Positions 12,180 through 40,619 are shown, numbered from the stretch's first letter. The stretch is DNA of 46,184 bases from Candidatus Woesearchaeota archaeon (GCA_964493265.1 CAZBLY010000002.1:43962-90145); one strand, 5' to 3'. The notes: a model not told the origin generated them from the letters alone. Translations and numbers: made by a program.

Positions 12180-12196
12180 TTTATTTTTTATATATT

Positions 12197-12556: not shown

Positions 12557-12686
12557 TTTACCTCTTTTGGTTTTCTTTATTTATTTTAAAGGTATGTGCT
12601 GTTTTTAAAATTTTCTTTTATCTTTCTATCTTTATTTTTGTTATTTTATTCTTTTTTATTCTTTTTTTAATGCTTTTTACTCTTTT

Positions 12687-13304: not shown

Positions 13305-13305
13305 C

Positions 13306-13467
13306 TTAACCACCAAACCTTAGAAAGTTTTTTATTTTTTCTAATAGGGTTAGACCTTGTTTATTTAATATAAAAATAAATATAATAACAAGAGCAAGAA
13401 CAACCAAGCCAATTACCCACCAAGCAATTTCAGACCAAACAAGCCCCTTTTTATTTTTAAAATTCAT
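13306..13467 (-). CDS. Small pilin-like protein, 53 aa (not in ORF track)
   Basis: Hand translation gives MNFKNKKG|LVWSEIAWWVIGLVVLALVIIFIFILNKQGLTLLEKIKNFLRFGG. Its stop TAA (13308-13306) lies one base before the ATG of the next gene. Confidence 0.45.
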   Translation of the reverse strand: MNFKNKKGLVWSEIAWWVIGLVVLALVIIFIFILNKQGLTLLEKIKNFLRFGG

Positions 13468-13511
13468 ATTCTTTATTTTTCAAAGTTTTTCAAGTTTAAA
13501 AATTTATAATA

Positions 13512-17377: not shown

Positions 17378-17857
17378 ATGGTAGCAATAGATTTAACAGG
17401 AATTTCATCTTTTATTCCTGTTTTTGGTTTCTTACTAATTTTTGTAGTTACTTATGCTCTTTTAGGTAAGACACAAGCTTTAGGAGAAAACAAGTTTGTT
17501 CATATTTTTGTTTCATTTGCAATATCTATAATTTTTCTTGTTTCAGCAAATGCTGTAAATTATGTTAAAATAATTGCTCCCTGGTTTGCTGCTTTTATTG
17601 TTTCCTTATTATTTATTGTTCTTCTTGTTGGATTAATTAAAAAAGATATTGATACTTTTTTCAACCCACGTTTTGCTTGGGTTTTAGTAGCAGCATTAAT
17701 TATTGTTTTTATTGTTTCAGCAATTTTTGTTTTTGGCGATCTTCTTAGCAAATATTTCGCAGGACCAAAAACTTTTTTAATGCAACCACAAATAATCGGT
17801 ATTATTGTCCTTTTAGGAATAACAGTATTTGCCGCATGGCTTCTAACAAGGAAATAA
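17378..17857 (+). CDS. Multi-pass membrane protein, paralog 3
   Basis: Motif FGFLLIFVVTYALLGKTQALGENKF. Hydrophobic throughout. Confidence 0.6.
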   Translation: MVAIDLTGISSFIPVFGFLLIFVVTYALLGKTQALGENKFVHIFVSFAISIIFLVSANAVNYVKIIAPWFAAFIVSLLFIVLLVGLIKKDIDTFFNPRFAWVLVAALIIVFIVSAIFVFGDLLSKYFAGPKTFLMQPQIIGIIVLLGITVFAAWLLTRK

Positions 17858-17943: not shown

Positions 17944-18513
17944 ATGAATAAGAAATTTTTGTTGATATTTGTAATTGCAACATTTATGTGCTTTTTTATT
18001 CTAAATTCTCAAGTAAAGGCAGACTGCATCGGAGCAACAACAAATTTTACTTGCGGAGATACTGTAACTGAATCTTGCACATTAAATCAATCAGAACCTG
18101 AACATAATGATAGCTGTTTTATAATAAATGCCAATGATACAATTATAGATTGTAATGGTTATAATTTAACAGGAAATGGAAGTATTGATTCTTCTGGAAA
18201 AGGTTTTATAGGAACAAACCTTGATAATGTAACAATAAAAGATTGTATTATTGTTGATTTTGATTATGGTATATGGATTAATTATTCCACCCACTTAATA
18301 ATCTATAATAATACTCTTACTTCTAACCAATATGGCGGAATTGGTTTGAATGCTACTAGTTATAGTAATTTATCAAGTAATATTGCTAGCCAAAATAGAC
18401 TCTATTCTTTTTATATAGGATACAATTCTTCTCATAATTTTATTTATAACAATCTGTTTAATTCTTCACAACTTGTTGGAGGGGGGGCCAATGGCAGGTC
18501 TTTTTGCTCTTAA
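17944..18513 (+). CDS. Secreted parallel beta-helix (PbH1/NosD-like) repeat protein, N-terminal fragment ending just after a G7 tract
   Basis: Signal peptide MNKKFLLIFVIATFMCFFILNSQVKA. Repeats such as IIYNNTLTSNQYGGIGLNATSYSNLSSNIASQN. The frame terminates 24 nt after the G run. Confidence 0.6.
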   Translation: MNKKFLLIFVIATFMCFFILNSQVKADCIGATTNFTCGDTVTESCTLNQSEPEHNDSCFIINANDTIIDCNGYNLTGNGSIDSSGKGFIGTNLDNVTIKDCIIVDFDYGIWINYSTHLIIYNNTLTSNQYGGIGLNATSYSNLSSNIASQNRLYSFYIGYNSSHNFIYNNLFNSSQLVGGGANGRSFCS

Positions 18514-20419
18514 AGAATTTAATTATAATAATATAACACAAAATATAGCAACATACAATGAAGATATTGGAATAAGAATATTAAATGGTTCACATAATAC
18601 AATTTCGTATAATAATATCGGCCATAATTGTAATGGTTTAATTATTAGAACTTATTCATATAATAATACTATCACAAATAATCACCTGGAATATAATGGT
18701 GTGGGAACTTGTGGCGCTGCACCATCTCTTAATCTTTATGATTATGCACAAAACAATATCGTTGAGAATAATGTAATTAAATCAAACTCAGACTCGGGAA
18801 TTACTATATATCAAGTATCTAATAGTAATTTAATAAGAAATAATACATTAACAAATAATACAGAAGGAATTAATATTGGGGGGACTTTTACAAGTTCATC
18901 TTATAATAAGATTTTCAATAATATTATCAATAAATGTAATGATGGAGTCATTTTTGGTTATGGATGGTATAATGTTGTGAAGAACAACACAATTAATAAT
19001 TCTAAGAATTATGGTATATCTATTTCTAATTTTGCATTTGAAAATTTAGTTTGGAATAGTTGGATAATAAATTCAACAACAAAAGATGTCTATATTCTAG
19101 GCACAACAAATCCAAATATTACTTTTCTTAATGTTTCCTTCAACAATAGCCATGTTCAACTTCAACATGGAAAGCTGTCTATTAAATGGTATCTAGATGC
19201 TTATGTTAATTATTCTGATGGAAATCCAGTTTCTGGAGCTTATGTAACAGCCTATATAGATGATTATTGTGAGGGTGTTGCTGATGCTTGTAGCGATTTT
19301 AAATTTTTTCCATATGGTTGTGAAGAACATTATGGATGCACGTGGAATGATCCTTTGTGTCAAGGGACAGCCATTCCATGTAGTAATATCGCAAATTCTT
19401 CAGGTTGCAATCAACAACATGGCTGTTCTTGGACCTCCCCAGATATAATTAATGTAACAACTAATTCTTCTGGTTATATTCAAAGACAAAATATTACAGA
19501 ATATTATGATACTTCTTATGGTAAAGTATATTTAACAAACTATTCCATCAATGCAAGCATAAATCCACATTCTGAAACAGAATCCGTTAATTTAACAACA
19601 AATAAAATAATAGATGATAATACGGAAATAGTTTTGACAATCACAGAAGAGCCAACAACCCTCACAGCAATCTACCAACCATCACTTTACACAAACACCT
19701 ATTTTAATATTAGGGCAAATTATTCAACAACATCAGGAACTCCAATCAGCGGAGCAACTTGCAACCTAACAATAATCCCAAGCTTAGATGGTGTTGCAGC
19801 ATCTTCTTTTTATGTTATGGGTTATAATTCAGGAACAGGACTTTATGAAACCCTCGGACTTGCAACATCGTTTGCAGATACATATTCAATTGTAATAGAA
19901 TGTGGAAAACAATATTATCAATTTCAATCAGGAGCAGGATCCTTCACTGTAAATGAACAGTCTGGTGGAGGTGGTGGAGGTGGTAGTAGTCCAGGACAAG
20001 AACCTGTTTGTGGAAATAAGATATGTGAAGAAGGAGAAACTTGTATTAATTGTCCAAATGACTGTGTTTGTGTTTGCGGAAATGATATTTGCGAGCCAGG
20101 AGAAACTTATAAAACATGTAATGAAGATTGTTGTGCTCCAGAAGGAATTCAAGTTAGTCCTCCTTATAATTGCTGTCCTGGTTTAATTTCTGTTTCAGAC
20201 TGCTTATTTGGACCCTGCCCTTTTTCAATTAGATATTGTATAAGATGCGGTGATGGTATTTGCAAAGAATATGAAACAATAAAAAATTGTCCAGAAGATT
20301 GCGGTGTTTGTAATTTTAATATTCCAATAAAAATAAGATTTGTTAAAGGAACTAGCGGCGGAGTTGTTCCTCAACAACCAACCCAACCAGAAGAACCTAG
20401 CCAGCCAGGATTAAGATAA
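18473..20419 (+). CDS. Parallel beta-helix repeat surface protein, C-terminal fragment with Cys-rich CGxxICExxE...C..DC repeats
   Basis: Beta-helix repeats continue immediately (NITQNIATYNEDIGIRILNGSHNTISYNNIGHN). Many N-x-S/T sequons, a G6SS linker and three Cys-rich repeats follow. The first ATG in this frame is at 18491; the track start is TTG. Confidence 0.6.
   Translation: MLEGGPMAGLFALKEFNYNNITQNIATYNEDIGIRILNGSHNTISYNNIGHNCNGLIIRTYSYNNTITNNHLEYNGVGTCGAAPSLNLYDYAQNNIVENNVIKSNSDSGITIYQVSNSNLIRNNTLTNNTEGINIGGTFTSSSYNKIFNNIINKCNDGVIFGYGWYNVVKNNTINNSKNYGISISNFAFENLVWNSWIINSTTKDVYILGTTNPNITFLNVSFNNSHVQLQHGKLSIKWYLDAYVNYSDGNPVSGAYVTAYIDDYCEGVADACSDFKFFPYGCEEHYGCTWNDPLCQGTAIPCSNIANSSGCNQQHGCSWTSPDIINVTTNSSGYIQRQNITEYYDTSYGKVYLTNYSINASINPHSETESVNLTTNKIIDDNTEIVLTITEEPTTLTAIYQPSLYTNTYFNIRANYSTTSGTPISGATCNLTIIPSLDGVAASSFYVMGYNSGTGLYETLGLATSFADTYSIVIECGKQYYQFQSGAGSFTVNEQSGGGGGGGSSPGQEPVCGNKICEEGETCINCPNDCVCVCGNDICEPGETYKTCNEDCCAPEGIQVSPPYNCCPGLISVSDCLFGPCPFSIRYCIRCGDGICKEYETIKNCPEDCGVCNFNIPIKIRFVKGTSGGVVPQQPTQPEEPSQPGLR
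18481..18487 (+). repeat. Homopolymeric G7 tract at the junction of the two beta-helix ORFs
   Basis: The sequence ttggaGGGGGGGccaatg lies in an otherwise AT-rich gene. Removing one G joins the two frames. Confidence 0.9.
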
Positions 20420-21801: not shown

Positions 21802-21922
21802 ATTAAAATCAAGAGTAAGGAATTTATAAAACTTTATAGTAATCTAAATATTTAAAAGGAAAGAGTCTGTTATTTATTGGTTAAAGTTGAAAGAGGTAAA
21901 TAAAACAAATAAAACAAATAAA

Positions 21923-22825
21923 ATGAAATTAAAACAGAATATATTTTTATTTGTATTTTTAATATTTGTTTTAAGTTTTTTAATTAATATTCCAAAAGTT
22001 ATGGCTATTGAAGGGGTTTTTCATCTTGATATCACATTATTAAATCAAGACCCATATCCTGCTGAACCAAATAGTTATGTTGATTTAGTTTTTCAAATTG
22101 AGAATAATGGGGATAGAATAGCGCAAGACACCATGGTTGAGCTTATTTTAGATTATCCTTTTTCTTTAGATGCTGGAACTAGTTCAATTCAAAGTATAGG
22201 AACAATAAGAATCATGCATATTGATGAAAAGCCTATTTTAGTTAAATATAAAGTGAAAGTTGACAAAGATGCTCTTGACGGAGATAATGAAATTATATTA
22301 CATTATACGTGCAATACAGGAGGAACATGGAGCAGTTATAATGAAGAAAAATTTAATATTAATATAGAAGAGTCAAAAACAGATTTTGATGTAGCAATAC
22401 AAGATTTTTCACCTTTAACAAATTCTTTAAGTTTGGCTATTGCAAACATAGGTAATAAAGATGCTAATTCTGTTACAATAGTTTTGCCTGAACAAGCCGC
22501 AATTGAGATTTTAGGTTCAAATAAAAATATTGTGGGGGGAATAGAAACAAATGACTATACTATAGCTTCTTTTAAAATTCTGCCTAAAAAAGACGATTCT
22601 TTAATTGTTCAAATATCTTATACTGATAACATAGGTATAAGAAGAGAGGTAGAAAAAACAGTTATGTTTAAATCTTCAACTTATGGTTTGGATGGAAAAA
22701 GCAGCAGCAAGAGTAATTTTAAAGCTATAATTTATGTTGTTATTGGAATAATAGGAATAATAATTATTTTTATTTTGTTCAGAATTCTAAAAAAGAAAAG
22801 AAGAAAAAAATCAAAAATAATTTAA
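21923..22825 (+). CDS. Secreted Ig-like/COG1361-type envelope protein with C-terminal membrane anchor
   Basis: Signal peptide MKLKQNIFLFVFLIFVLSFLINIPKVMA. LNQDPYPAEPNSYVDLVFQIENNGD is typical of the archaeal COG1361 'S-layer domain' family. C-terminal TM plus KKKRRKKSK tail. The track start at 21887 is TTG. Confidence 0.55.
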   Translation: MKLKQNIFLFVFLIFVLSFLINIPKVMAIEGVFHLDITLLNQDPYPAEPNSYVDLVFQIENNGDRIAQDTMVELILDYPFSLDAGTSSIQSIGTIRIMHIDEKPILVKYKVKVDKDALDGDNEIILHYTCNTGGTWSSYNEEKFNINIEESKTDFDVAIQDFSPLTNSLSLAIANIGNKDANSVTIVLPEQAAIEILGSNKNIVGGIETNDYTIASFKILPKKDDSLIVQISYTDNIGIRREVEKTVMFKSSTYGLDGKSSSKSNFKAIIYVVIGIIGIIIIFILFRILKKKRRKKSKII

Positions 22826-22867: not shown

Positions 22868-24112
22868 ATGAAATTTAAAGATTCATTTAAATTTGCTTTA
22901 AATAATTTAACTACAAGAGGTTTAAGGAGTTGGTTAACTATTATTGGAATAATTATAGGTGTTGCAGCAATAGTTGCTATAGTTTCTGTTGGACAAGGAC
23001 TCCAAGGAACTATTCAAAATCAATTAAGTAGTTTAGGTAGTGATATTATTTATGTTTTACCTGGTTCTTCTCTTGAATATAGTTTTATGCAAAGTCTAGC
23101 TCCAGAACCTGGTAATTTAACAGAAAAAGATTTGAAACTAATAAAAATTGTAGAAGGAGTTCTTTATGTTGCTCCAGAAATAGTTGGAATGGTAGATATG
23201 GAATATTCGGGTAATACTAAAAATCTTTATCTTTTAGGTACTGATGAAAACTGGAAAAAAGTTAGAGAAAGTAGTGCCGGTCTTGAATCAGGAAGATTTT
23301 TAATGAAAGGCGACAAAAATGTTGTTGTTTTGGGTAATAAAATTGCAACAGATGCTTTTGATAAACCCATTTATATTGGTTCTCAAATAAAAATTGAGGG
23401 TGATTCTTTTAGAGTTATAGGAATTTTAGAAGAATTTGGCGGAATGGCTGGAATGGGTGAAGATAGTTATATTTTTGTAAGTCTTGAAGATGCAAAAGAA
23501 TATTCTTCATTTGGTTCTAATGAAGAAGAATATTATGCTATGGAAGTTAGGGTTGAATCTGAAAGAACTGAGGAAATTGCTGAAAAAATAAAACAACAAT
23601 TAATGATTTCAAGACATGTTAATGAAGAAAATATTAATTTTGGTATTATGACTCCAAAAATGATTTCATCAATAGTTAGTAATATACTTAATGCAATAAA
23701 TTTATTTTTATATGGGATTGCAGCAATTTCTCTTTTAGTTGGGGCTGTAGGAATTGCAAATACAATGTTTACTTCAGTTACAGAAAGAACTAGACAGATA
23801 GGAATTCTTAAAGCATTAGGTATGACAAATAAAGGGGTGATGAATCTTTTTCTTGTTGAATCTGCTTTAATTGGTTTTGTTGGAGGGATTCTTGGACTTT
23901 TCATAGGCTTTGTCATTTCTGGAATAATCGGGCAAGCAGCTACATTTATGTTAGCTACTACAATGATTGGTGGAGGATCATTAGTTTCTATAGGTCCTGG
24001 TTTAGTTATTTTTGCACTTTCATTTTCAGTTATAGTTGGAGTTATTTCAGGAATTTTTCCAGCTAGAAGAGCATCAAGACTTCAACCAGTAGAAGCTTTG
24101 AGATATGAATAA
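22868..24112 (+). CDS. ABC transporter permease, MacB/FtsX family
   Basis: N-terminal TM, large extracytoplasmic MacB-like domain, and a C-terminal FtsX 3-TM bundle (ERTRQIGILKALGMTNKGVMNLFLVESALIG). Confidence 0.85.
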   Translation: MKFKDSFKFALNNLTTRGLRSWLTIIGIIIGVAAIVAIVSVGQGLQGTIQNQLSSLGSDIIYVLPGSSLEYSFMQSLAPEPGNLTEKDLKLIKIVEGVLYVAPEIVGMVDMEYSGNTKNLYLLGTDENWKKVRESSAGLESGRFLMKGDKNVVVLGNKIATDAFDKPIYIGSQIKIEGDSFRVIGILEEFGGMAGMGEDSYIFVSLEDAKEYSSFGSNEEEYYAMEVRVESERTEEIAEKIKQQLMISRHVNEENINFGIMTPKMISSIVSNILNAINLFLYGIAAISLLVGAVGIANTMFTSVTERTRQIGILKALGMTNKGVMNLFLVESALIGFVGGILGLFIGFVISGIIGQAATFMLATTMIGGGSLVSIGPGLVIFALSFSVIVGVISGIFPARRASRLQPVEALRYE

Positions 24113-24138: not shown

Positions 24139-24867
24139 ATGAAAAACAAAAAATTCAAAAAAACAAAAAAAATCAAGAAAATCAAAAAAACAATAAAACC
24201 AAAAAAAGAAGCTTTGTCAGTAAAAGATTTGGCAAAAATTTATGAATTAGATGGTGTAAATGTAAAAGCCCTTAATGGGGTAACATTTAGCATTCCAAAA
24301 AATAAATTAACAATAATTATGGGGCATAGCGGTTCTGGGAAATCAACTCTTTTACATTTAATTGGTTGTTTAGATAAACCAAGCAGAGGAAAGGTGTTTT
24401 TAGGTGGTGTTGACACTTCTAAATTAACAGAGGATGAATTAGCTAGATTAAGAAATAAAAAAATTGGTTTTGTTTTTCAATTCTTTAATCTACACCCTTT
24501 ACTTACTGCTATAGAAAATGTTGAGTTGCCTTTAACAATAGCTAATGTATCAGGAATACAAAGAAGAAAAAAAGCTATGGAACTTCTTAGAATGGTTGAT
24601 TTAGAGAATAGGGCAGATCATCTACCAAATCAATTATCTGGTGGAGAACGGCAAAGAGTGGCTATAGCAAGATCTATGATTAATGAACCTTCGATTATTA
24701 TGGCTGATGAACCAACTGGAAATTTAGATACAAAATCAAGTAGCGAAATAATGAATACCCTAACAAAATTAAAAAAGAAAACCACAATTATCGTAGTGAC
24801 TCATGATCTGGAAATTACAGAAGATGCAGATAAAATTATAAAATTACGAGATGGAAAATTAGTTTGA
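24139..24867 (+). CDS. ABC transporter ATP-binding protein (MacB/LolD-type) with Lys-rich N-terminal extension
   Basis: Walker A GHSGSGKSTLL, Q-loop FVFQ, signature LSGGERQRVAIAR, Walker B IIMADEPTGNLD, H-loop VTHD. Confidence 0.9.
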   Translation: MKNKKFKKTKKIKKIKKTIKPKKEALSVKDLAKIYELDGVNVKALNGVTFSIPKNKLTIIMGHSGSGKSTLLHLIGCLDKPSRGKVFLGGVDTSKLTEDELARLRNKKIGFVFQFFNLHPLLTAIENVELPLTIANVSGIQRRKKAMELLRMVDLENRADHLPNQLSGGERQRVAIARSMINEPSIIMADEPTGNLDTKSSSEIMNTLTKLKKKTTIIVVTHDLEITEDADKIIKLRDGKLV

Positions 24868-29892: not shown

Positions 29893-29965
29893 GGGCCCGT
29901 GGTCTAGTGGTTATGACGTTGCCTTGACGTGGCAAAGATCGCAGGTTCGAGTCCTGCCGGGCCCA
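29893..29965 (+). tRNA. tRNA-Val (anticodon GAC), 73 nt, no intron, CCA not encoded
   Basis: Acceptor GGGCCCG/CGGGCCC, anticodon stem TTGCC/GGCAA with loop TTGACGT, T stem GCAGG/CCTGC, T loop TTCGAGT. Confidence 0.9.
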
Positions 29966-30013
29966 CTCATAAAATAAAAGAGGAAAAAAGAAAAAAGAAA
30001 CAAAAAATAAAAA

Positions 30014-30343
30014 ATGATAAAAAAAGAAGAAGAAAAACTTTTTGCATTTTTGTGTTATCTAATTTCAATAATTGGCGTGATTATTGTATTAGCAACAAAA
30101 AAGGAAAGAAGCAAATTCAGCATTTATCATGCAAAACAAGGGTTAGTGTTATTTATAGCATATATTATTGTAGCAATTTTGTGGTCTATTTTAGGATTTA
30201 TACCTATAATTGGAGCAATAATATCTGCGGTTTTGTGGTTATTGATGCTGGCTTTATGGATTATTGGAATAGTTAATTCATTGAATGAAAAAATGGTTCC
30301 ATTACCTGTAATAGGGCAATTTGCAAAAACTTTCAAATTTTAA
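30014..30343 (+). CDS. Small membrane protein, DUF4870-like
   Basis: Three hydrophobic spans and the K..S.F..YHAKQGL pattern seen in DUF4870-type proteins. Confidence 0.5.
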   Translation: MIKKEEEKLFAFLCYLISIIGVIIVLATKKERSKFSIYHAKQGLVLFIAYIIVAILWSILGFIPIIGAIISAVLWLLMLALWIIGIVNSLNEKMVPLPVIGQFAKTFKF

Positions 30344-30457: not shown

Positions 30458-32317
30458 ATGCAGAAGAAAGCACAAGTTACTCTTTTTATAATAATAGCTG
30501 TAATAGTGTTAGCTGCTGCTCTCTTCTCTTTCTTTTATTTTAGACAACCAATAATTAATATTCCTTCTGAAATCAGGCCAGTTGAAAATTATTTTATTGA
30601 TTGTGTTTCTGAGCACGTTAAAGAAGCTTCAAAAATAGCTGGAATGCAAGCTGGTTATTTAGAGATGCCAGAATTTGAAGCTGGTTCAGAACATATGCCG
30701 TTTTCATCTCGTTTGGATTTTCTTGGAATGGAAGTTCCTTATTGGTTTTATGTTTCTGGAAATAATTTGGCCAGAGAAAAAAGACCAGAAATTGTTGATA
30801 TTGAAAAGCAATTTTCAAATTATTTAACAAAAAAGATTCAAGAATGTAATCTTGATGATTTTGTTAATAAAGGTTATGAAATTGAAAAAGAAAATGAACC
30901 AGTTATTAGTGTTGATATAAAAGAAAATTCTATTGAGACCAATGTTTATTGGCCTTTTGTTATTAGTTTTGATGAAACCACATCCAGGATAAATGAACAT
31001 AAAGTTTCAACAAAATCTAATTTTGGCAGCTTATATGAAACAGCCAACACCATTTATGAAGCTGAACAGGATAAATATTTTTTAGATAATTATGCTCTTG
31101 ATGTTTTGAGATTATATGCTCCTAATACAGGTATTGAATTAAGTTGCGCTCCCAAAACCTGGTTAGTTTCTGAAATTAAAGATGAAATTAATCAAGCTCT
31201 TGAAGGCAATATTGGCGCTGTAAAAGTTTCTGGAAATTATTATAGATTAGCTAGTTCTGAAAACAAATATTTTGAAGTTGATGTTGGAAGAAAAATCAGT
31301 GAGAATGTTTATTTTCTTTATTCTAGAAATATGCCCCATATTTTTGAAGTCTGGCCTTCTGAAAATGATCTTATGATGGCTGAACCAATTGGAAATCAAC
31401 CCGGTCTTGGCTTGCTTGGAAGTATTGGTTTTTGTTATGTTCCTTATCATTTTATTTATGATTTAAAATTTCCTGTTATGGTTCAAATTATTGATGGGGA
31501 GAATATTTTTCAGTTTCCTGTTCTTATTATGATTGATAAAAACACTATAAGAAATGTTTCTGAAGTTGAAAGTGGGGAGGTTGTTTTTGATATTTGTGAC
31601 CATAAAACTCAACAAGCCACAATATTTACTTATGATGAAAATTCAGCCCCTCTAAAAGCAGATATTGGTTACAAGTGCTTTAATCAAATTTGTGATGTTG
31701 GAAAAACAACCCTTAAAGAGGGGAAAGCCTCTCTTACCACTTTATTACCTCAATGTTATAATGGATTTTTAATTGCCAAAGCGCCAGATTATATAACTTC
31801 AAAACTCCAAGTTTCAAGTACAGAGTCTTTTGTAACTAACATATTCTTAAATCCAATTCATACTTTTGATGTTGAAATTAATTTAGGCAGTAATGAAAAT
31901 GCTGTAATTAATTTTGTTTCAGATGATTATTCCACCACCTTATATTATCCAGAACAAAAAACAGTAACTTTAGCTGAAGGAACTTATGAAATTTCGGTTC
32001 AACTTTTTAAGGAATCATCTATCACTCTAGAAGCTCAAACTGTTGAAAAATGCATTAAAATTCCTGAAGGTGGTGTTGCTGGAATGTTTGGAGCAATGCA
32101 AGAACAGTGTTTTGATCTTGAAATTCCTGCAGAAAGTTTAACTAATGTACTTTTTGGCGGGGGCTCAACAGAATTTTCAGTTACAGAATCTGAATTATCT
32201 AGCAATTCAAAAATAAAAATCGATGTTCCTTCATTTGATGTTCCAAAAGATGTGCTTGAATTAACAGATATTTATAGTATTATTGAATTAAGTGAGGTTC
32301 AAATCAGTTTATCATAA
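30458..32317 (+). CDS. Envelope protein with pilin-like N terminus, 619 aa, no recognisable domain
   Basis: MQKKAQ|VTLFIIIAVIVLAAALFSFFYF. GAGG motif upstream (aaagaggcgcctcaaatg). Lies 41 nt upstream of the giant gene on the same strand. Confidence 0.6.
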   Translation: MQKKAQVTLFIIIAVIVLAAALFSFFYFRQPIINIPSEIRPVENYFIDCVSEHVKEASKIAGMQAGYLEMPEFEAGSEHMPFSSRLDFLGMEVPYWFYVSGNNLAREKRPEIVDIEKQFSNYLTKKIQECNLDDFVNKGYEIEKENEPVISVDIKENSIETNVYWPFVISFDETTSRINEHKVSTKSNFGSLYETANTIYEAEQDKYFLDNYALDVLRLYAPNTGIELSCAPKTWLVSEIKDEINQALEGNIGAVKVSGNYYRLASSENKYFEVDVGRKISENVYFLYSRNMPHIFEVWPSENDLMMAEPIGNQPGLGLLGSIGFCYVPYHFIYDLKFPVMVQIIDGENIFQFPVLIMIDKNTIRNVSEVESGEVVFDICDHKTQQATIFTYDENSAPLKADIGYKCFNQICDVGKTTLKEGKASLTTLLPQCYNGFLIAKAPDYITSKLQVSSTESFVTNIFLNPIHTFDVEINLGSNENAVINFVSDDYSTTLYYPEQKTVTLAEGTYEISVQLFKESSITLEAQTVEKCIKIPEGGVAGMFGAMQEQCFDLEIPAESLTNVLFGGGSTEFSVTESELSSNSKIKIDVPSFDVPKDVLELTDIYSIIELSEVQISLS

Positions 32318-32358
32318 AATATCATAAAATAAATTAAAATTAAAATTAAGAATAAAGA

Positions 32359-35300
32359 ATGAAAATAGAAATTCAAATAAAAGAAAGAACAATGTTTTTA
32401 TTTGTAATAGGTTTTATTTTTATTTTAATGGCAATGATTTTGACTTCTGTTTTAATTTTAGCTGAAGAAACTCCTGGATTTAATCAACAAGTTCAATCAC
32501 AACCATATATTTATGAAAATGCACAAGCAAGTCCCTGGATGCAAGTTCCCTGGCAAGATAAATATTGTAATGAATCTGAAATGGGGATGGATTTTATTGT
32601 GGAAATTCCTCCTGATGCTTGTACTCCTGCAGTTGTTCGTTCTGATTTATTGGAAGAACAGGATGTTCCTGTTTTTTGTAGAATGACCGGAATCAAAATA
32701 AATCCTTTAATTCAAATCCCTTATATAAAAAGCATTGTTCCAACTGTTGAAGACAGATCTCCTGAAATTAATTATATTACTTTTCTTCCTGCTAGATATG
32801 CTTTGAGTTATTATGCTTCAAAAGATCAAAAACCAGCAAGTTTCCAAGGTGTTCCTAGTATGTCTAATCTAGGTTATCTTTTAATTGATTTAAAAAGCCA
32901 GCCAGTAGAAGAAAAGATGCCTGATAATGTTAGAGCAAATATTTCCTTGAAATTAAGATATGATGTTGGAAAAACTTATGGAATTAATGAACACCAATTT
33001 ATTCTTCCTTTATTGGGTAATGATGAATGGCAAAAAGAATATGAAAAATATAATTTTTGGCAAGGTAAGGGTTTTTTAAGATTAAATGAGATAACTGGTC
33101 CAAATACTGCTAAAGTTTCTGTCTATACTTCTGTTAATTCAATTCCAACCACCAAAGAAGTCCGTGTTGGTGTTGTTCCAGGAAAAGGAGATGAAATTAT
33201 GTTGCCTGGATTTTATTGTGGAGTTGGTGTTAACTTAAGATTAGATGAGATAACTGTTCCAAAAACAAGAGCAAGACTTATTGTAAATGGTGATGAGCTT
33301 TTGATAGGTGAAGGAGAAGAGATTCAAGATTCAGATTGTTATGTTGTTTCAATTATTCCATCCCTTTATTCTTATGGCGGGGATGTTAAAATTAGATGTG
33401 GTTCAAAAGATCCTCAATTTTTATCATTAGAAGATCTAGAAGCAAATATTGAAATAAGAGATGGTGCAGAAATAACATCAAAAAAAGTTGGTATTGGTGA
33501 TGATTTGGAATTAAGTAAAGATGTTGAAGGAATAAATCACGTTTATGTTGGGTTTATTGGAAAAGAACTTGCAAAAGATGGTTTAACTGATATTATGGTT
33601 TTATTTCAAAAAGAAAATGCAGATGCGCTTAATGAAAAATCAATAGAAAAAATTTCTAAAGTTATTCATGATTATGTTGAAGCAAAAAGACAGAAAGCAT
33701 TGAATGTGATGTCAGAAGGGATGTGGAAGACTGAAATAGAAAAAGAATTAATTAAGAAAAAACATTCTGAACTTAAAAAAACAAAAATTTATGTTGTGAA
33801 AAAAGGTGCAGGATATAAAGATATAAATGGGGCAAAATCTGAAGTTAAGTTGGTTTCTGTTGAAGGCCCTATGCAGGCAAAATATTCAAACGGGGTTGAG
33901 GCAGCTTATAAAGAAGCAATTGAACAATACAAAGATATTGCATATGGTTATTCAGAAACATATAATGAAGAAGGAACATATTATGGAATTAAAGCTTATG
34001 ATGAAGCAGTTAAATTAGCAGAATATATGCATAAAACCAATGATCAAGTTTCTTTGCTTCAAGAAATGATTAATAAATATTCTGATTCTGAAGAATATGA
34101 AGTAATAGAAGAGGTTGAACATGCAAGAGAAATATTAAGAAGAATAACAGCGGTTGGCGGAGATAATGTTAAACAATTTAAAAGTCAGGAAGGACTTTTT
34201 TTAATCCGGTTAGTTTCAATTGAAAAACCTTCTACAGAAATGCAATCTGCTGAAATAGAAGTTGATGGCGTAAGGAAAATTTATTCAATTTATACTGAAG
34301 TTAATGATTGGGAAATTATTAATATAGATGATGCCAGTATTATCCTTGAAAATAAAACAGGAAGTAAGGAAACAATAGTTAAAGGTTCTTGGAAATATTT
34401 AGATAAAAAGAAAATTTATCTTATTGATACAAAAATAAAAAGAGAGGTTAAAATAAGTGTTCTTCCATTTGAGAAAGAAAGAACAACCACAGTAAACTTC
34501 ACTGTCCAGATAGGAATTGAAAAAAGAGCTATTAAATTAAGTCCAGAAAAAACCAAAGACATGATTAGAAATTTAGATAATCTGATTTCTAAATTTGAAG
34601 GAATAAATAAAAATCTTGGCAATGTTGTAAGTTTTTGGAATAAAGCTTGTTATGTTGGGGCTGGTGCTTTATGGATCAAAAATTTTATAACAGGTTTAGG
34701 TGGAAAAGCAACTGCAAGAAAGATGGTTATGGATAAATGGTCTATTAAATGTTCTAATAAAGCTTATCAAAACCAGATAGGTGCAAAAAGTATTTCAGAT
34801 TGTTATAGGAAAAAAGAAACTGCTATAAATGATGATATAGAAATTATGCAGAATTCTTTGAATGGTGCTAATGATTTTATTAAAGATGTTAAAAAACAAG
34901 ATGGTGTTATGGTAAGTGGTGGTTTATTGGGTTTGGATAAGACACCTAATGAAAAAAAATTCATGGAAGTTGCTCAAGAAAATTTTCCTCAAGAACTTCG
35001 AGATATAAAAATAATAGGTAAGGATGGTCAAGAAATAGATTCATCAGAAATCATAGACAATATAACTAGTTTAAATAATCAAGGTTATATTTTTAAGGAC
35101 GATGTCAAAGATCTTCACTTAAGACTTGATTTATATAAAAATTGTCAAGGCAATCCAGATTCTGTTTTATGTGGTTCTGTTTTGGAAGGAACTTATGGAC
35201 AATTAGATTATTTCACCGAGAGTCTTGAAAATGTTGAAACAAAAAGTGCTTATAACTCTCTTTTTGGTCATAATCCTGTGGTTGTAAGAGAAAAAGATAT

Positions 35301-38300
35301 GCAAATAATCCCAGCCCCTCTTTATGTTGTTAATGATGCTTTTATTAGTAAATTTGAACAAGGAAGTCGAAATATAATGTTTGACAATAAGGGTTTTAGA
35401 TATGCTGAATTTAATTTTGAAAGTACTTATTATATTGCAATACTTGCTTCTCAAGGTGATGGAATTTTTAGTATTGAAAAACTTTATGAAATTGATAAGG
35501 AAAAATTGCTAAATAATAAAGGAATTATTAAAGAAAGATATGAAAAAGAAGAATTGGTTCCTCAACTAAAATTAATGAAGATAGCAGATGTCCAAGAAAT
35601 AGATATTACTTTATGTAATAATAATATGATTTCAAGAGGTTTAGATGATGGCGAGCCTTGGAATACTGTAAAGTTCTGGGAGTCTGGCCCTTATAAAGGT
35701 CTTGTAGCTTATCTACCTCTAAGAAAAAATGATGGTTGGTATATGGCAACAACATCTTATACAGGAATGGAAGGTGCTATGACTGCTTATAAAGAATCAG
35801 GAAATATTAACACTTTTTATATTTGTAATGTTGGACAGGATGGAATCCCTAATTTTGATTTTTTAAGCGGGCAAAAAGGAGATGATTGTTGTACTTTAGT
35901 TTCAGCTGTTCAGGGAATTCAAAATTTAGAAATTGCTCCATTAAATGCTGCTGGCTCTAAGGCAGTTCATCAAGAAGCTATAAAATGTGCTTCAGAAGCA
36001 AGTAGACAATTTTTACAAGGCAGCAGAAAAATTTCTACTTCATGTGTAAGAACTTTGGTTCATGGAAAACCCCCAAGTTCTAGAGCAACAGTAGAATGTG
36101 AAGATTTTATGTCTCCAAGTGATTGTTGGAAAATGTTCAATTTATGCGATCCTGTAATGTGTCCTCCATCAAGATGTGATTTTGGCGGAAGAATGCCGGT
36201 AAGTAATGTTGTTCAATCAGGAGTTATTGGCTCATTATTATTATGCTGGCCTAATTTTGAAGGCGGCAGGGGTGTTTTAGTTCCAATATGTTTGACAGGA
36301 GTTCATGCCGGTCTTGAGAGTTTTACAGGGGTTCTTAAGTCTGGAAGAGATTGTTTACAAGAACAATTAGATACTGGAAGAACAATAGGGATATGTGATC
36401 AGATTATGTCTGTTTATATGTGTGAATTTTTTTGGCGTCAGTTTGATCCTTTTATAAAAGCTGGATTGCCTGCAATAACAGAATCTCTAATGAATAGAGG
36501 TGGGGGAGAATATGCTTTATTTAGTGATTCATGGAAACAATCTATAGAAGGTGTTAATTACTTTACAGACTTTTATGGTAAAAATCAAATACAGGCTTTC
36601 AAAGCAAGGTCAACAGCTCAGATTGGAAGTGAAATTTGTAAAAAGTTTGTTTCAGTTGCATATCCAACCCAGGCAAAATTCTGGGATGAATTATCTGAAC
36701 CAGAAAGTCCTACACAGGTAACAGCATGGTTTGATGAAATTGCTGTTGGTGGTCCAAGTCCTGAAGGCCATTATAAAGTTTTTTCTTATATTTGGGCTGG
36801 CAAGGATCAAGGAGTTTATTATTCTGTTTATCTAACAAACCCTTCAACAACCGGTGGTTATTATCAAACACCTGAATATTATCCTGTTCCAAAAGCTTCT
36901 GGTTATCTTAAAGCAGGGGAATATATAAGCATTAGTCCGGATTTTAGAGCCCCAAGCGGTTATAAGGAAATTTGTGTTAATATTAATGGACAACCAATTT
37001 GTGGTTTCGGTCAGGCTACAACAGATTTTGCATTAAAAGAATTACAAAATCTTTATATTGAAAGTCAGGCAACAGATGATATTAAGACAGCTAAAGAATG
37101 TGTTTCTGGAAAGCCAACAATTATTCCAACTGCTACTTTAAATATTCAATCTGCTGTAGAACATTCTTTAGAACCTAGCATCTATAAAAAAGGCATTATC
37201 AGAATTTGCAGCAAATTAAATCCAGGAACAGGAACAGGAAAATCAAATTGGAAAAATATTGGATATTGTGATAATCCTGATGTTGGTTGTTGGTTAGATA
37301 CAAATAGTGTTGAAGGGGCTGTTTCTGACCTTGGTATAAAAGAAGAAATTATGCAAGAAGCTGAATTTAAAGATATGCAGCACATGATTGACAAACTTGG
37401 ATATGATCATCCAGATGAGAGTAGAGCTAAAATAGATAAGATAAGAAAAAAAATTCCTGATGTTAAAGAATCAGCTGAAAGATTAATGGATGAAATAGAT
37501 AAAATCGAGAAAATAGAAGATTTGGAAAAACAAAAAACAACATATAATACTAAAGCGAAGATTATAGATAAAACTATTAGTTCTCTTATAGGGGAATTCC
37601 AGGACACACTTGCAACATGTGTGAATGAAGAAGAAAAAGTTAAAGCAGAATGGCATATTGCCGAACTATTTGATTTAAGAACAAAACTTCTTTCAAAATT
37701 AGAAGTAGCAATACTAGAAAAAGAACTTGAAAAACAAATTAAAGAAGAAGGAAGAATAACATGTACTTCTTTAGGTGGGCAGTGGAAAGATAAATGTTCA
37801 GATTTTGAAGACCAAATAACAAGTGATGTTGGTTCAAAAGATAGATTAGAACATCCTGGCAAGGTTTGTTGTAAAATGATAGAAGCTGAATTACCTTTCC
37901 AAGCATGGCCTTCTGATACTATGAAATATATTATTGATTGTAAATGGTCTTCAGGAATTATGAAAAGATCTCCAATAGAAATAACAATCAGAAGCCCTAT
38001 GAAACCAATTATTAAAAGATGGAATGAAGAAGAACTTTATGTGAGAGTTATAGGGAGAGGAGTAGTTCTTCTAGCTGCTGATAATGAAAAACCAGGTAAA
38101 AAATACGTTATAGTTAAACATGGAGATTCTCTTTATACTTATTATGGAAATCTTAAGGAAATTGTAGTAAAGAATGGCAAAGTTGTGAATGAAAACAATG
38201 TTATTGGATTGGCAACTTCTACTACTGTATTTCCTATCAAGAGGGCAGAATTTACATTTAGGGTTTTAACGCGCCCTTATCTTGATTTAGATCATGAAGA

Positions 38301-40479
38301 AGATCCAATGTGTTTTTTTAGCAAAGATTTAGTTAAAAAGATTCCATATGATTATTTTAATGCTCTTTGTTATTCAACGAAAATGGAAGAATATTATGAT
38401 TCTCAAGAATGTGTTGAGGCAAGACGAAAAGCAATTGTACAAACTGGAGAATATGAAGAGCCTATTGGACCTTTTCCCCTTCCACCTTATGGAGAACCAA
38501 TTGGGCCAGAACCATCAGAGGAACCAATTATTGCAACAAAAACATTACAAGAAGCAGTAATTGTTATTGATCCTGGTCATGGCACTTATATTAAAGATGG
38601 GAAGACAATATATGATCCTGGAACAGTTTGGCCTTTACCTCCAAAAGAAGCTGAGTTCACAGAAGAAGAAATTGTTTTATCTATTTCTAAAAAATTAAAA
38701 ACACTTTTAGAAAATCAAGGGGCTACAATATATATGACAAGAGAAGATAGCAAGACACCCAAAACAAAAGGTTCTACTTTAGCTAATGATAAAAATGCTG
38801 ATCTTCTTCTTTCAATTCATGTTAATGGAGGGGGTGGAGATGGAACCGAAATATGGATTCCATGTGGTGGCTGCGAATCACCAGAAGAAATAAGAGAAGG
38901 GTTTTATTATTGTAAAGTTGAAGATTTATGTGAAACTAACGAAAGAGAATTTTTAGAAAGCAAACAAGTTAGTGAATATATTCTTGAAAAAATAACTAGT
39001 GCTATAGGAACAAGAAAAAGAGATTGGAGTGAAGAAGGAATTGGTTATAGTTTAAGTTATGGTATTTTAAAAGTTGATGTGCCTGCCATGATAATTGAAA
39101 CAGCTTTCTTATCAGATGAACGGGAAAGAGCTATTTTAACAGATGCTGAAGGCCAACAAAAAATTGCTAATGCTGTTTCTGATAGTTTAGCTGAATATTA
39201 TGGAACAGCTGAAATTATGGAAAAAAAATGTTCTGAAATTACAGATCAAACAAATTGCGAGATTAAAAAAGAAGAATGTTGGTTTGATTCTGATGATTCT
39301 ATATGTAAAAGTTGTCCTCAACTTGTTAGACCAAATGCTGGATGTGAAGGAGCTCGCGAAGGATTTTTTGACTGGGGAAAAAGAAATATTTTATTTAATA
39401 ATCAAAAAGATTGTGAAGAAAATAATTGTGGGCTTGATTGTAAGTGGTTAAATAATGAATGTGTTTCAAGTTCAGTTGCTGCTGAACAAGAAATTGACCC
39501 AGAACTTGAACAATATCTTAATGAGTTTGCAATAGAGAATTTAAAAACAGAATCTGGAATATATATTTGGCAAGAAATAACCCCGTCAGATACTTTGGCT
39601 TTGATGGATGCAAAAGTGGAATTTCAAGAAGTAGAAAGTCAACTTGGTCAATTTGCTGAACAATATGAAATTCAAGGCAATGAATATGTTCTTAGTTGGG
39701 AGGAAAAATTAAATTATAAAATAGAAGAAATTAATGAAGATCTTAATTCACAAATGTCAGATGAATGGGATGATTTTGTTAAAGAAGATGCTGAAAAATT
39801 AATAACTGAGAAACATAAGGCTGATTGTGCTGATTTTGCTATTCAACTTCTTGCAGATTTTGCAGAAAGTCTTTGTACTGATCTTGATAGAAATTATGAA
39901 CTTAATGTTTATGGTTCTTCTGGAAATCTTATTATTGGTGATGCAAGCAAAATAAGAGACAGCGTAGGAACAAGAGGATTATTAGATGATAGAAGCACTG
40001 TTAGAGCAATAGATTTAGAATTTATTAGCATTCAAAATGATTTATTAGGATATCCTCAAAGAATAAAACAAGATTCTTATAATCCAAAGAATCTTGAACC
40101 AGGGGATATTTTGATTTATAGATGGCGTGATGTAGGCAACAACGTTGGTGGTTGGGATAGTGTTGTTTATGTAGATAAAAAATATGTTGGAAAATATATT
40201 CCTGAACAAAAAGAAATATGGCAACACATTCTTGGAAAAGGAAATCTCGTTAATGGACAAATTAGTGCGGTAGAATATAGAAAAACAGTTAATTTTGATA
40301 TAAAAAGAGATAATTGGGAAGATATAATAATTGATGATGATTATTTAGCAGAAAAAGGAACAGTGGCAGCTTCTACTTTTTCAAGACAATATGGGAAATA
40401 TAATTATTACTTTTTAGATGAAGATCTTTATGATATTAGAAGATGGAATTTTCCTGAAGTTGTTGTTTGTAAAGCTTAA
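32359..40479 (+). CDS. Giant membrane-anchored/secreted multidomain protein, 2706 aa, with LytM-like and Amidase_3 cell-wall hydrolase domains
   Basis: An uninterrupted 8.1 kb ORF in a stop-rich AT genome. N-terminal hydrophobic anchor FLFVIGFIFILMAMILTSVLILA. Domains are described in the entries below. Confidence 0.85.
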   Translation: MKIEIQIKERTMFLFVIGFIFILMAMILTSVLILAEETPGFNQQVQSQPYIYENAQASPWMQVPWQDKYCNESEMGMDFIVEIPPDACTPAVVRSDLLEEQDVPVFCRMTGIKINPLIQIPYIKSIVPTVEDRSPEINYITFLPARYALSYYASKDQKPASFQGVPSMSNLGYLLIDLKSQPVEEKMPDNVRANISLKLRYDVGKTYGINEHQFILPLLGNDEWQKEYEKYNFWQGKGFLRLNEITGPNTAKVSVYTSVNSIPTTKEVRVGVVPGKGDEIMLPGFYCGVGVNLRLDEITVPKTRARLIVNGDELLIGEGEEIQDSDCYVVSIIPSLYSYGGDVKIRCGSKDPQFLSLEDLEANIEIRDGAEITSKKVGIGDDLELSKDVEGINHVYVGFIGKELAKDGLTDIMVLFQKENADALNEKSIEKISKVIHDYVEAKRQKALNVMSEGMWKTEIEKELIKKKHSELKKTKIYVVKKGAGYKDINGAKSEVKLVSVEGPMQAKYSNGVEAAYKEAIEQYKDIAYGYSETYNEEGTYYGIKAYDEAVKLAEYMHKTNDQVSLLQEMINKYSDSEEYEVIEEVEHAREILRRITAVGGDNVKQFKSQEGLFLIRLVSIEKPSTEMQSAEIEVDGVRKIYSIYTEVNDWEIINIDDASIILENKTGSKETIVKGSWKYLDKKKIYLIDTKIKREVKISVLPFEKERTTTVNFTVQIGIEKRAIKLSPEKTKDMIRNLDNLISKFEGINKNLGNVVSFWNKACYVGAGALWIKNFITGLGGKATARKMVMDKWSIKCSNKAYQNQIGAKSISDCYRKKETAINDDIEIMQNSLNGANDFIKDVKKQDGVMVSGGLLGLDKTPNEKKFMEVAQENFPQELRDIKIIGKDGQEIDSSEIIDNITSLNNQGYIFKDDVKDLHLRLDLYKNCQGNPDSVLCGSVLEGTYGQLDYFTESLENVETKSAYNSLFGHNPVVVREKDMQIIPAPLYVVNDAFISKFEQGSRNIMFDNKGFRYAEFNFESTYYIAILASQGDGIFSIEKLYEIDKEKLLNNKGIIKERYEKEELVPQLKLMKIADVQEIDITLCNNNMISRGLDDGEPWNTVKFWESGPYKGLVAYLPLRKNDGWYMATTSYTGMEGAMTAYKESGNINTFYICNVGQDGIPNFDFLSGQKGDDCCTLVSAVQGIQNLEIAPLNAAGSKAVHQEAIKCASEASRQFLQGSRKISTSCVRTLVHGKPPSSRATVECEDFMSPSDCWKMFNLCDPVMCPPSRCDFGGRMPVSNVVQSGVIGSLLLCWPNFEGGRGVLVPICLTGVHAGLESFTGVLKSGRDCLQEQLDTGRTIGICDQIMSVYMCEFFWRQFDPFIKAGLPAITESLMNRGGGEYALFSDSWKQSIEGVNYFTDFYGKNQIQAFKARSTAQIGSEICKKFVSVAYPTQAKFWDELSEPESPTQVTAWFDEIAVGGPSPEGHYKVFSYIWAGKDQGVYYSVYLTNPSTTGGYYQTPEYYPVPKASGYLKAGEYISISPDFRAPSGYKEICVNINGQPICGFGQATTDFALKELQNLYIESQATDDIKTAKECVSGKPTIIPTATLNIQSAVEHSLEPSIYKKGIIRICSKLNPGTGTGKSNWKNIGYCDNPDVGCWLDTNSVEGAVSDLGIKEEIMQEAEFKDMQHMIDKLGYDHPDESRAKIDKIRKKIPDVKESAERLMDEIDKIEKIEDLEKQKTTYNTKAKIIDKTISSLIGEFQDTLATCVNEEEKVKAEWHIAELFDLRTKLLSKLEVAILEKELEKQIKEEGRITCTSLGGQWKDKCSDFEDQITSDVGSKDRLEHPGKVCCKMIEAELPFQAWPSDTMKYIIDCKWSSGIMKRSPIEITIRSPMKPIIKRWNEEELYVRVIGRGVVLLAADNEKPGKKYVIVKHGDSLYTYYGNLKEIVVKNGKVVNENNVIGLATSTTVFPIKRAEFTFRVLTRPYLDLDHEEDPMCFFSKDLVKKIPYDYFNALCYSTKMEEYYDSQECVEARRKAIVQTGEYEEPIGPFPLPPYGEPIGPEPSEEPIIATKTLQEAVIVIDPGHGTYIKDGKTIYDPGTVWPLPPKEAEFTEEEIVLSISKKLKTLLENQGATIYMTREDSKTPKTKGSTLANDKNADLLLSIHVNGGGGDGTEIWIPCGGCESPEEIREGFYYCKVEDLCETNEREFLESKQVSEYILEKITSAIGTRKRDWSEEGIGYSLSYGILKVDVPAMIIETAFLSDERERAILTDAEGQQKIANAVSDSLAEYYGTAEIMEKKCSEITDQTNCEIKKEECWFDSDDSICKSCPQLVRPNAGCEGAREGFFDWGKRNILFNNQKDCEENNCGLDCKWLNNECVSSSVAAEQEIDPELEQYLNEFAIENLKTESGIYIWQEITPSDTLALMDAKVEFQEVESQLGQFAEQYEIQGNEYVLSWEEKLNYKIEEINEDLNSQMSDEWDDFVKEDAEKLITEKHKADCADFAIQLLADFAESLCTDLDRNYELNVYGSSGNLIIGDASKIRDSVGTRGLLDDRSTVRAIDLEFISIQNDLLGYPQRIKQDSYNPKNLEPGDILIYRWRDVGNNVGGWDSVVYVDKKYVGKYIPEQKEIWQHILGKGNLVNGQISAVEYRKTVNFDIKRDNWEDIIIDDDYLAEKGTVAASTFSRQYGKYNYYFLDEDLYDIRRWNFPEVVVCKA
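37921..38270 (+). other. Degenerate LytM/M23-like domain within the giant protein (aa ~1855-1970)
   Basis: GKKYVIVKHGDSLYTYYGNLKEIVVKNGKVVNENNVIGLA follows the M23 core pattern (G.yv.i.H..g..t.Y.hl....V..G..V..G..IG). The metal-binding HxxxD is absent, and HxH is replaced (AEFTFRV where PHLHFEV-like is expected). Confidence 0.4.
38557..39204 (+). other. N-acetylmuramoyl-L-alanine amidase (Amidase_3) domain within the giant protein (aa ~2067-2282)
   Basis: VIVIDPGHG, EEEIVLSISKKLKTLLENQGATIYMTRED, ANDKNADLLLSIHVNGG, VPAMIIETAFLSDERE and QQKIANAVSDSLAEYY. All four canonical Zn/catalytic positions (H, E, H, E) appear to be present. Confidence 0.8.
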
Positions 40480-40511
40480 ATTAAATTTTTCTAAAAATAA
40501 ATAAAAAGTAA

Positions 40512-40595
40512 TGCGGAGGACAGGATTCGAACCTGCGTAGGGACTGACCCATCAGGTCCTAAGCCTGACCCGTTTGACCACTCCGGCACCCCCGC
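40512..40595 (-). tRNA. tRNA-Leu (anticodon UAG), 84 nt with long variable arm, no intron, CCA not encoded
   Basis: The minus strand reads GCGGGGG TG CCG..CGG G TCAGG CTTAGGA CCTGA, then a long variable arm TGGGTCAGTCCCTAC, T arm GCAGG TTCGAAT CCTGT, and acceptor CCTCCGC A. Confidence 0.9.
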
Positions 40596-40619
40596 ATAAT
40601 AATTCTAACTTCTAAAGAC

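Follow-up and report, generated by a model that had tools for sequence, protein, structure and literature searches.

The 46,184-nucleotide stretch of DNA analyzed here (the window), from an assembly of a Candidatus Woesearchaeota archaeon (GCA_964493265.1, CAZBLY010000002.1:43962-90145), contains two adjacent genes that encode a 619-amino acid (aa) protein with a pilin-like leader, which we call the partner, and a 2,706-aa protein, which we call the giant. The explanation that we favor, with a probability of about one half, is that the pair represents a conserved, exported two-protein surface apparatus of Pacearchaeota-type (DPANN) archaea, acting as a cell-tethered enzyme on bacterial murein. 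The evidence for it lies in the strict linkage of the two genes among relatives, in a giant that is predicted to lie outside the cytoplasm and to end in an intact amidase domain, and in the exchange, across the family, of this distal part for other murein hydrolases. Few uncultured archaea are as widespread as the Pacearchaeota and Woesearchaeota, and, to our knowledge, nobody knows on which cells they depend. This apparatus, which in many lineages terminates in enzymes able to act on bacterial murein only, is the strongest genomic pointer to bacteria as their partners or prey.

The features on which the argument draws are as follows, with positions counted from the first nucleotide of the window.

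30458..32317, plus strand: partner gene, open reading frame of 619 aa
30458..30535, plus strand: predicted prepilin-type (archaeal class III) leader and hydrophobic helix of the partner, MQKKAQ/VTLFIIIAVIVLAAALFSFFYF
32359..40479, plus strand: giant gene, open reading frame of 2,706 aa plus stop codon
32359..32463, plus strand: predicted export signal or membrane anchor of the giant, aa 1-35 (Kyte-Doolittle maximum, 2.92)
32479..36078, plus strand: conserved N-terminal core of the giant, aa 41-1240, conserved in all 119 homologues
36079..37338, plus strand: Cys-rich core of the giant, aa 1241-1660, the most conserved part of the protein
37339..37758, plus strand: predicted coiled-coil stalk of the giant, aa ~1661-1800, modeled as long helices
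37861..38367, plus strand: degenerate LytM/M23 domain of the giant, aa ~1835-2003, from Pfam M23 and Foldseek matches
38449..38532, plus strand: Pro-rich EPIGP linker, aa 2031-2058, between the LytM and amidase domains, read from the sequence
38560..39192, plus strand: Amidase_3 domain of the giant, aa 2068-2278 (Pfam PF01520)
38860..38958, plus strand: four-Cys insertion in the amidase, CxxC...C...C, aa 2168-2200, placed by alignment
39229..39618, plus strand: Cys-rich spacer of the giant, aa 2291-2420, with 10 Cys, read from the sequence
39619..40476, plus strand: C-terminal domain of the giant, aa 2421-2706 (286 aa), of unassigned family, delimited by alignment of homologues

The gene pair and its locus

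Both open reading frames lie where the first-pass annotation had placed them, on the plus strand and separated by 41 nucleotides, and its proposal that they form a two-gene unit is borne out by their relatives. The partner has 353 related stretches in the species-representative genomes of GTDB. Eighty of these loci were fetched, and at every one of the 76 that are informative (the other four end within 360 nucleotides), a homologue of the giant's core lies immediately downstream of the partner homologue on the same strand. In two relatives the genes even overlap by 4 nucleotides. In many genomes the pair occupies a fixed locus, bordered by rpS3Ae, GINS, and FtsY at one end and by LSM, S8e, and TFIIB at the opposite end, which indicates that it is vertically inherited among housekeeping genes and is no mobile island. 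The complete genomes that carry the pair measure ~0.65-0.7 Mb, and in a genome of ~0.7 Mb it takes up about 1% of the sequence.

M23 and Amidase_3 are typically bacterial or phage domains, and their presence here would be explained if the contig were a chimera with bacterial DNA or came from an organism that makes murein. We consider such an artefact exceedingly improbable. The identical 619-aa and 2,706-aa pair occurs in three independent assemblies (JGI 3300032062, JGI 3300031654, and Logan SRR9707468), and the neighboring genes are also the same on the two JGI contigs, which are the longer ones. The gene order recurs in the complete Pacearchaeota chromosome CP061211.1 (710,724 bp), and complete Pacearchaeota chromosomes share both the architecture and the neighbors. 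Profile annotation of the window places archaeal informational genes on both flanks of the pair, with RadA, RPA, SRP54, FtsY, and GINS51 on the 5' side and LSM, S8e, TFIIB, and the tRNA-splicing (tRNA-intron) endonuclease on the 3' side. G+C content is uniform across the window (~0.24-0.34), and the hydrolase domains are continuous, in the same reading frame, with a core that occurs in these archaea alone. A chimeric join is thereby excluded, and the archaeal source on which the first-pass annotation had built its argument is upheld.

Some features close to the pair can be recorded here. A gene for a small membrane protein of the DUF4870 (MamF/MmsF-like) family lies directly 5' of the partner (30014-30343, plus strand); a three-gene module that includes it was considered and rejected, as the DUF4870 gene is kept at this position in only eight close relatives. 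Further upstream, a tRNA-Val gene (29893-29966) overlaps the start of a 115-aa open reading frame (29929-30276), which is therefore probably spurious. On the other side, a tRNA-Leu gene (40511-40596, minus strand) lies 31 nucleotides past the stop codon of the giant.

The partner, the giant, and its distal head

The partner starts with a leader that has the marks of an archaeal class III signal, namely a short N-region that bears charge and closes with [KR][GA], followed by Q/A and by ~20 aa of hydrophobic sequence. The motif [KR][AG]Q[VIL]T[LI]F[IV]I[IL]A is kept family-wide (a loose pattern of it is found in 89 of 120 members), with Q6, T8, F10, I12, and A14 nearly invariant. It is of the same style as the leaders of pilin-like genes elsewhere in the window, a likeness that the first-pass annotation had pointed out and that holds for the genes at 8037-12556. 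These belong to a type IV pilus-like cluster on the minus strand (27-15671) that comprises a T2SSE/FlaI-type ATPase (27-2327), seven small prepilin-leader genes (8037-8855, 8886-9401, 9417-9872, 9901-10251, 10299-11222, 11467-11970, and 12197-12556), and a 719-aa protein with a weak DUF2207_C match (13512-15671). The machinery for handling the partner's leader may come from this cluster. At 619 aa the partner is far larger than typical pilins, and it is probably retained in the membrane or in a pilus-like fiber by the hydrophobic helix at its N terminus. It has no match in Pfam, NCBIfam, or the PDB (sequence profiles), and our literature search found no paper that names the gene, nor any data on the isolate Pace33H. 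Its homologues, of which there are at least 862, have a uniform length of 610-660 aa and, in the family alignment, 10 invariant Cys.

The giant is predicted to be extracytoplasmic because only its N terminus is of membrane grade (aa 1-35 form the sole such hydrophobic segment) and because its homologues begin with Sec-type signal peptides, which end in, for example, VYA/Q or ANA/A and have cleavage-like sites in most cases. This agrees with the first-pass annotation, which had described one hydrophobic anchor with the remainder outside the cell. That annotation had also found nothing familiar in the N-terminal part of the protein, and the first ~1,650 aa do stay without a match: searches of Pfam, NCBIfam, PHROGs, and PDB sequence profiles returned nothing for aa ~41-1660, and a fold search with aa 41-1240 gave no significant match in the PDB (best E = 0.022) or BFVD (best E = 0.017). 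PDB profile matches that did appear for the core or the partner (Huntingtin, a tape-measure protein, and HisF) were set aside as compositional or coiled-coil noise. The AlphaFold models used here and below were built from alignments of 36-38 whole homologues, and in them the amidase and C-terminal parts are poor or unmodeled. The model of aa 41-1240, with a predicted local distance difference test score (pLDDT) of 77, combines regions rich in beta-sandwiches with helical bundles and helices of great length; the GIEKR motif at aa 719-723 in this region is invariant.

The Cys-rich core that follows contains 17 Cys rather than the 12 counted in the first-pass annotation (the whole giant has 60), along with the motifs CDPVxCPxSRC and GGGEY. 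In the family alignment, about 20 Cys are invariant in this core, as is Gly in two stretches, both of them Gly-rich and mildly hydrophobic (aa 1279-1297 and 1305-1326). It is the family's most conserved segment and yet the worst modeled, with a pLDDT below 50 for aa ~1235-1450.

Searches with the whole giant and with the Cys-rich core delimit the family. The whole protein finds 228 homologues, and the best 120 (E < 1e-215) have lengths of 1,744-3,188 aa; the named sources are all Pacearchaeota, Woesearchaeota, Nanoarchaeota, or simply "archaeon." The Cys-rich core, compared with 1.84 billion cluster representatives (clusters at 50% identity), matches 1,006 clusters at E <= 1e-3 and 886 at E <= 1e-30. 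The best 150 of these matches are all giants or fragments of giants that have the core in the same position and with 45-77% identity. The module is thus found well beyond this one contig, in a lineage-wide family of which the giants have already been noted in the literature (PMC8204110). Coverage within the family is constant over aa ~50-1700 and variable beyond, and the orphan core, not a hydrolase, defines the family.

The variable ends include SLT (PF01464), M23, Amidase_3, Amidase_2, glucosaminidase, Peptidase_M15_4, NlpC/P60, and a few other domains, usually with one or two enzyme types per protein. The closest relative of the giant (P0002; 2,604 aa, 57% identical) has the same dead LytM domain and the same C-terminal domain, with a second LytM domain in place of Amidase_3, and we conclude from this replacement that the head is exchanged as a cassette. 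In the tandem LytM domains of P0002, the first (aa 1870-2033) is dead, and the second (aa 2051-2227) has no HxxxD match and has HLD in place of HxH. HLD also occurs in P0003, P0004, P0019, and P0020, together with TxxxD in place of HxxxD. Because of these replacements, many "M23" annotations in the giant family may not denote active peptidases.

Throughout the family, the orphan core leads into a coiled coil. In the giant of the window, this long coiled coil, recognized in the first-pass annotation, is modeled with a pLDDT above 90 at aa ~1661-1800, within a model of aa 1150-2349 that has an overall pLDDT of 59. The LytM domain is matched by Peptidase_M23 of Pfam at aa 1895-1956 (E = 4.8e-9; 36.7 bits versus a cut-off of 28.7), is modeled with a pLDDT of 80-94, and has a Foldseek probability of 1.0 to ShyA, Csd1/Csd2, DipM, and the LytM domain of EnvC. 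The first-pass annotation was thus right about the fold, but its description of murein-hydrolase hardware does not hold for this domain. SPIEITIRS, YYGNL, and AEFTFRV stand in place of HxxxD, the catalytic His, and HxH, and because no metal-binding or catalytic motif is left, the domain is predicted to be catalytically dead, like that of EnvC, and no active M23 peptidase; the relatives P0009, P0014, and P0027 retain the M23 catalytic motifs. When the model of aa 1150-2349 is compared with the PDB by Foldseek, the best match is full-length EnvC in FtsEX-EnvC (8tzl_E; 402 columns, E = 1.2e-6), to which the coiled coil and LytM domain align together. The second-best match is a pre-ejectosome protein of cyanophage A4 (9k2v_A; 492 columns), and the LytM domain of EnvC bound to AmiB (8c0j_B) is also among the matches.

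The Pro-rich EPIGP linker, present as first described, leads to the Amidase_3 domain, the identification of which is confirmed by a hidden Markov model search (E = 1.3e-31; 110.4 bits versus a cut-off of 27) that covers positions 1-173 of the 174 in the profile. Alignment to AmiA, AmiB, AmiC, CwlD, and CwlV places the active-site residues at H2074 (DPGHG), a Glu of E2102-2104, H2154 (SIHVN), and E2247 (IIETAF), and these residues are conserved across the amidase domains of the family. The domain is, accordingly to its aligned residues, a predicted N-acetylmuramoyl-L-alanine (MurNAc-L-Ala) amidase with its zinc ligands and catalytic Glu intact. A phage origin of the head was considered and rejected, the best phage endolysins being only ~27% identical.

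The amidase carries an insertion of ~34 aa with four Cys at the site that is occupied in AmiA/B/C by the autoinhibitory helix; strand 4 and the last conserved block are 58 aa apart here, compared with 24 aa in CwlV and ~80 aa in AmiB. The insertion is found in all five family amidases that follow a dead LytM domain and is absent from four of the five complete amidase domains that have no LytM domain. Likewise, in each of the six family members that combine LytM with Amidase_3, the LytM domain is dead. This correlative support suggests that the dead LytM domain probably gates or positions the amidase by way of the four-Cys insertion.

Beyond the amidase, the Cys-rich stretch listed in the first-pass annotation is present and recurs in ~30 family members, where it is located after their hydrolase domains. 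The C-terminal domain is found besides only in P0002, P0012, P0022, and P0018. One of its Cys is invariant (C2490, in DCADFA), a GDILIY (GDxLxY) motif is also present, and the domain had been called possibly papain-like. We do not adopt this assignment: the matches are all below threshold (Peptidase_C93, E = 0.047-0.07, 13.9 bits versus 27; Amidase_6, 0.066; CHAP, 0.23 in relatives), and the position expected to hold the catalytic His is Asp2599 in the giant and Asp also in P0002 and P0012 (it is His in P0018 and P0022). A profile search of the PDB gave no match for the domain.

Possible functions and related systems

In the explanation that we favor, the partner would be exported via its prepilin-type leader, and its pilin-type helix would anchor the complex on the cell or on a fiber. 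The giant, exported by its Sec-type signal, would present a disulfide-rich core of ~1,650 aa and, on a coiled-coil stalk, a variable head at the distal end. In the window, the head would be a regulated amidase, made up of an EnvC-like coiled coil with its dead LytM domain, a flexible Pro-rich linker, and Amidase_3, with the LytM domain gating or positioning the enzyme. Displayed on the archaeal surface, it would cut stem peptides from the glycan strands of the peptidoglycan of a neighboring bacterium, and local opening of the sacculus would then allow the conserved core to reach the bacterial envelope. Tethering through the partner, control of the amidase by LytM, and use against living bacteria are what we infer from the parts; the purpose could be attachment, killing, or scavenging, and could take the contact-dependent form (attachment, penetration, or lysis) that was originally suggested.

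The substrate of the amidase must be foreign because the enzyme set of the family fits bacterial murein and not pseudomurein. The chemistry of SLT, MurNAc-L-Ala amidases, and D-amino-acid peptidases suits the former and not the latter, and by established wall chemistry, this repertoire led us to reject pseudomurein as a target. The heads of the family cover most bond types of bacterial murein, and the bacterial wall presumed as substrate in the first-pass annotation is the sole plausible one.

Several observations weigh against the picture of a tethered, regulated murein-cutting enzyme. About 56% of the 119 listed homologues have no recognizable murein hydrolase, most tails in the species-representative genomes also lack one, and five domain-free members stay empty at relaxed thresholds. 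Because over half of the members are without a hydrolase, the conserved role of the core and partner is not murein hydrolysis itself; murein cleavage is an add-on to them. We know of no bacterial host for any Pacearchaeota, and there is no prepilin peptidase (Peptidase_A24) gene in the window. As for the gating of the amidase, P0041 has the insertion in an amidase without LytM, and the dead LytM domain of P0002 precedes a second LytM domain and hence is not amidase-specific. Moreover, the insertion is a four-Cys element and not obviously a helix of the AmiB type, and the amidase part of the AlphaFold model is of low confidence.

For the conserved role of the core and partner, cell-cell engagement is the most attractive guess. 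A more far-reaching form of this idea, which we put forward only tentatively, is that the pair is an unrecognized archaeal machine that engages and breaches the envelope of another cell, with a membrane-active Cys-rich core and with murein-cutting heads acquired repeatedly where the partners or prey are bacterial. The head in the window would then be a self-contained unit of an EnvC-like activator and an amidase. If true, this would provide a first molecular handle on episymbiosis or predation by archaea on bacteria.

Alternatively, a tethered digestive enzyme could free peptides and amino sugars from the debris of bacterial walls, with no living partner involved. The small genomes, with their very limited biosynthesis, are in accord with such scavenging, and heads that cleave murein in so many ways would be suited to digesting it completely. 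Takamiya et al. reported that muramoyl-tetrapeptide carboxypeptidase is abundant in Pacearchaeota and proposed the peptidoglycan of dead cells as an amino-acid source (PMC11537232). However, a single protein usually has only one or two enzyme types, too few for a full digestive set; over half of the members have no hydrolase; and the dead LytM domain, in its apparently regulatory role, points to cutting that is controlled and local. A core of ~1,650 aa with an obligatory partner would also be very costly for a simple exo-enzyme, and on balance, scavenging seems rather unlikely. The giant might, on the other hand, be secreted after cleavage of its signal as a free bacteriolysin directed against competitors. 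Archaeal peptidoglycan hydrolases do kill bacteria and are prominent in Nanoarchaeota (PMC12352652), the Sec-type signals of most homologues have cleavage-like sites, and an immunity gene is neither needed nor seen downstream. Free lysins are small, however, and release would leave unexplained the conserved core, the strictly linked partner with its pilin-type anchor, and the members that have no hydrolase. An amidase alone, in addition, rarely lyses Gram-negative cells from outside. We regard a released weapon as quite improbable.

It is also conceivable that the core and partner are a structural part of the archaeon's own envelope, either a surface layer or a pilus-associated scaffold, on which the heads are secondary decorations. 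The pair is, after all, lineage-wide and vertically inherited at a housekeeping locus, the giant has beta-sandwich-rich regions and a coiled-coil stalk, many members lack a hydrolase, and the window also contains a type IV pilus-like cluster. Rapid evolution is usual in surface-layer proteins, however, in contrast to the identity of 45-77% that the Cys-rich core retains in its best 150 matches. Furthermore, the independent recruitment of at least seven kinds of murein hydrolase at the distal end is hard to explain without contact with a bacterial wall, and a purely structural role appears improbable to us.

Proteins of this kind have been described before. Large extracellular lytic-transglycosylase proteins of these lineages were reportedly noted by Castelle in 2015. 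In the passages devoted to it, Castelle et al. (2021) describe a family specific to Pacearchaeota and Woesearchaeota, fam00969, with proteins of up to 3,000 aa that have a lytic transglycosylase domain, and propose that it attaches to or degrades bacterial walls (PMC8204110); Vigneron et al. (2022) make a similar point on such giants in the corresponding passage of their paper (PMC9723730). As described there, fam00969 shares with the giant of the window its lineages, its size range (to ~3,000 aa), a predicted extracellular location, and a murein-cleaving domain. Many homologues of the giant carry SLT, with E = 0 to 1e-215 over the shared core. The family of the giant is thus very probably fam00969, by description and not by accession, although the giant itself differs in having, by Pfam, no SLT but a dead LytM domain and Amidase_3. 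To the extent of these descriptions, the general idea that archaeal giants act on bacterial walls is already published, and the giant is a variant member of a partly described family. In the passages of the two papers that deal with such giants (PMC8204110, PMC9723730), and in our literature search, we found no mention of a 619-aa partner that is always present, a definition of the family by its orphan core, an exchange of heads among at least seven enzyme families, the dead LytM domain with or without the amidase, or the hydrolase-free majority. The archaeal peptidoglycan hydrolases that Strock et al. (2025) showed to kill bacteria resemble the giant in being bacterial-type murein hydrolase domains encoded by archaea without murein, but they are modular enzymes of a catalytic and a wall-binding domain, and the paper does not present them as heads of a conserved 1,650-aa core that is accompanied by a partner gene (PMC12352652).

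The closest analogy for the head is the bacterial EnvC-AmiA/AmiB and NlpD-AmiC systems, which likewise pair a dead LytM domain, preceded by a coiled coil, with an Amidase_3 domain that contains additional sequence where the regulatory helix is located. The analogy is not exact because these are separate proteins that act at the cell's own septum, whereas in the giant both parts are fused at one end and the target would be a foreign wall; moreover, where AmiA/B/C have the regulatory helix, the giant has the four-Cys element. If the analogy is valid, the fusion of an activator-like domain with its amidase would represent, in one natural polypeptide, a circuit that controls bacterial cell division.

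The giant also resembles the tape-measure, tail-associated, and ejectosome proteins of phages, which are long, partly helical, and equipped with an exchangeable M23, SLT, or NlpC/P60 hydrolase with which they breach a bacterial wall where contact is made. However, its core has no sequence or fold relation to phage wall-piercing proteins in PHROGs or BFVD, and its gene is chromosomal and not within a provirus. With polymorphic toxins (CdiA, Rhs, and MAFB) it has in common a large constant N-terminal part and a C-terminal effector that is swapped between close relatives. Here, too, there are differences: the effectors of the giant family all target murein, and many members are effector-free. No delivery or pre-toxin domains of polymorphic toxins were found in the giant with Pfam and NCBIfam, and directly downstream of it, no immunity gene is seen, the positions there being taken by tRNA-Leu and LSM.

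Other genes in the window

About 8 kb from the pair lie genes for a secreted CARDB-domain protein (21887-22825), a MacB_PCD/FtsX-type permease (22868-24112), and an ABC ATPase (24139-24867). An FtsEX-like link between this transporter and the giant was considered. A MacB/FtsX transporter is found within 10 kb of the pair in only 6-7 of the 80 loci, all of them from close relatives, and there is no support for the link beyond this synteny.

Two further groups of genes on the plus strand encode small membrane or secreted proteins. At 17944-20419, a secreted Cys-rich protein of 189 aa is followed by an overlapping gene for a 648-aa right-handed beta-helix (NosD-like) protein, which is probably another surface protein. 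Between this group and the pilus-like cluster, a tandem trio (16147-16629, 16818-17363, and 17378-17857) encodes small membrane proteins of 159-181 aa, the N-terminal hydrophobic segments of which are alike (...VFVVIYAILEKT, ...VFTIVFAILEKI, and ...IFVVTYALLGKT), so that the three have the appearance of paralogues.

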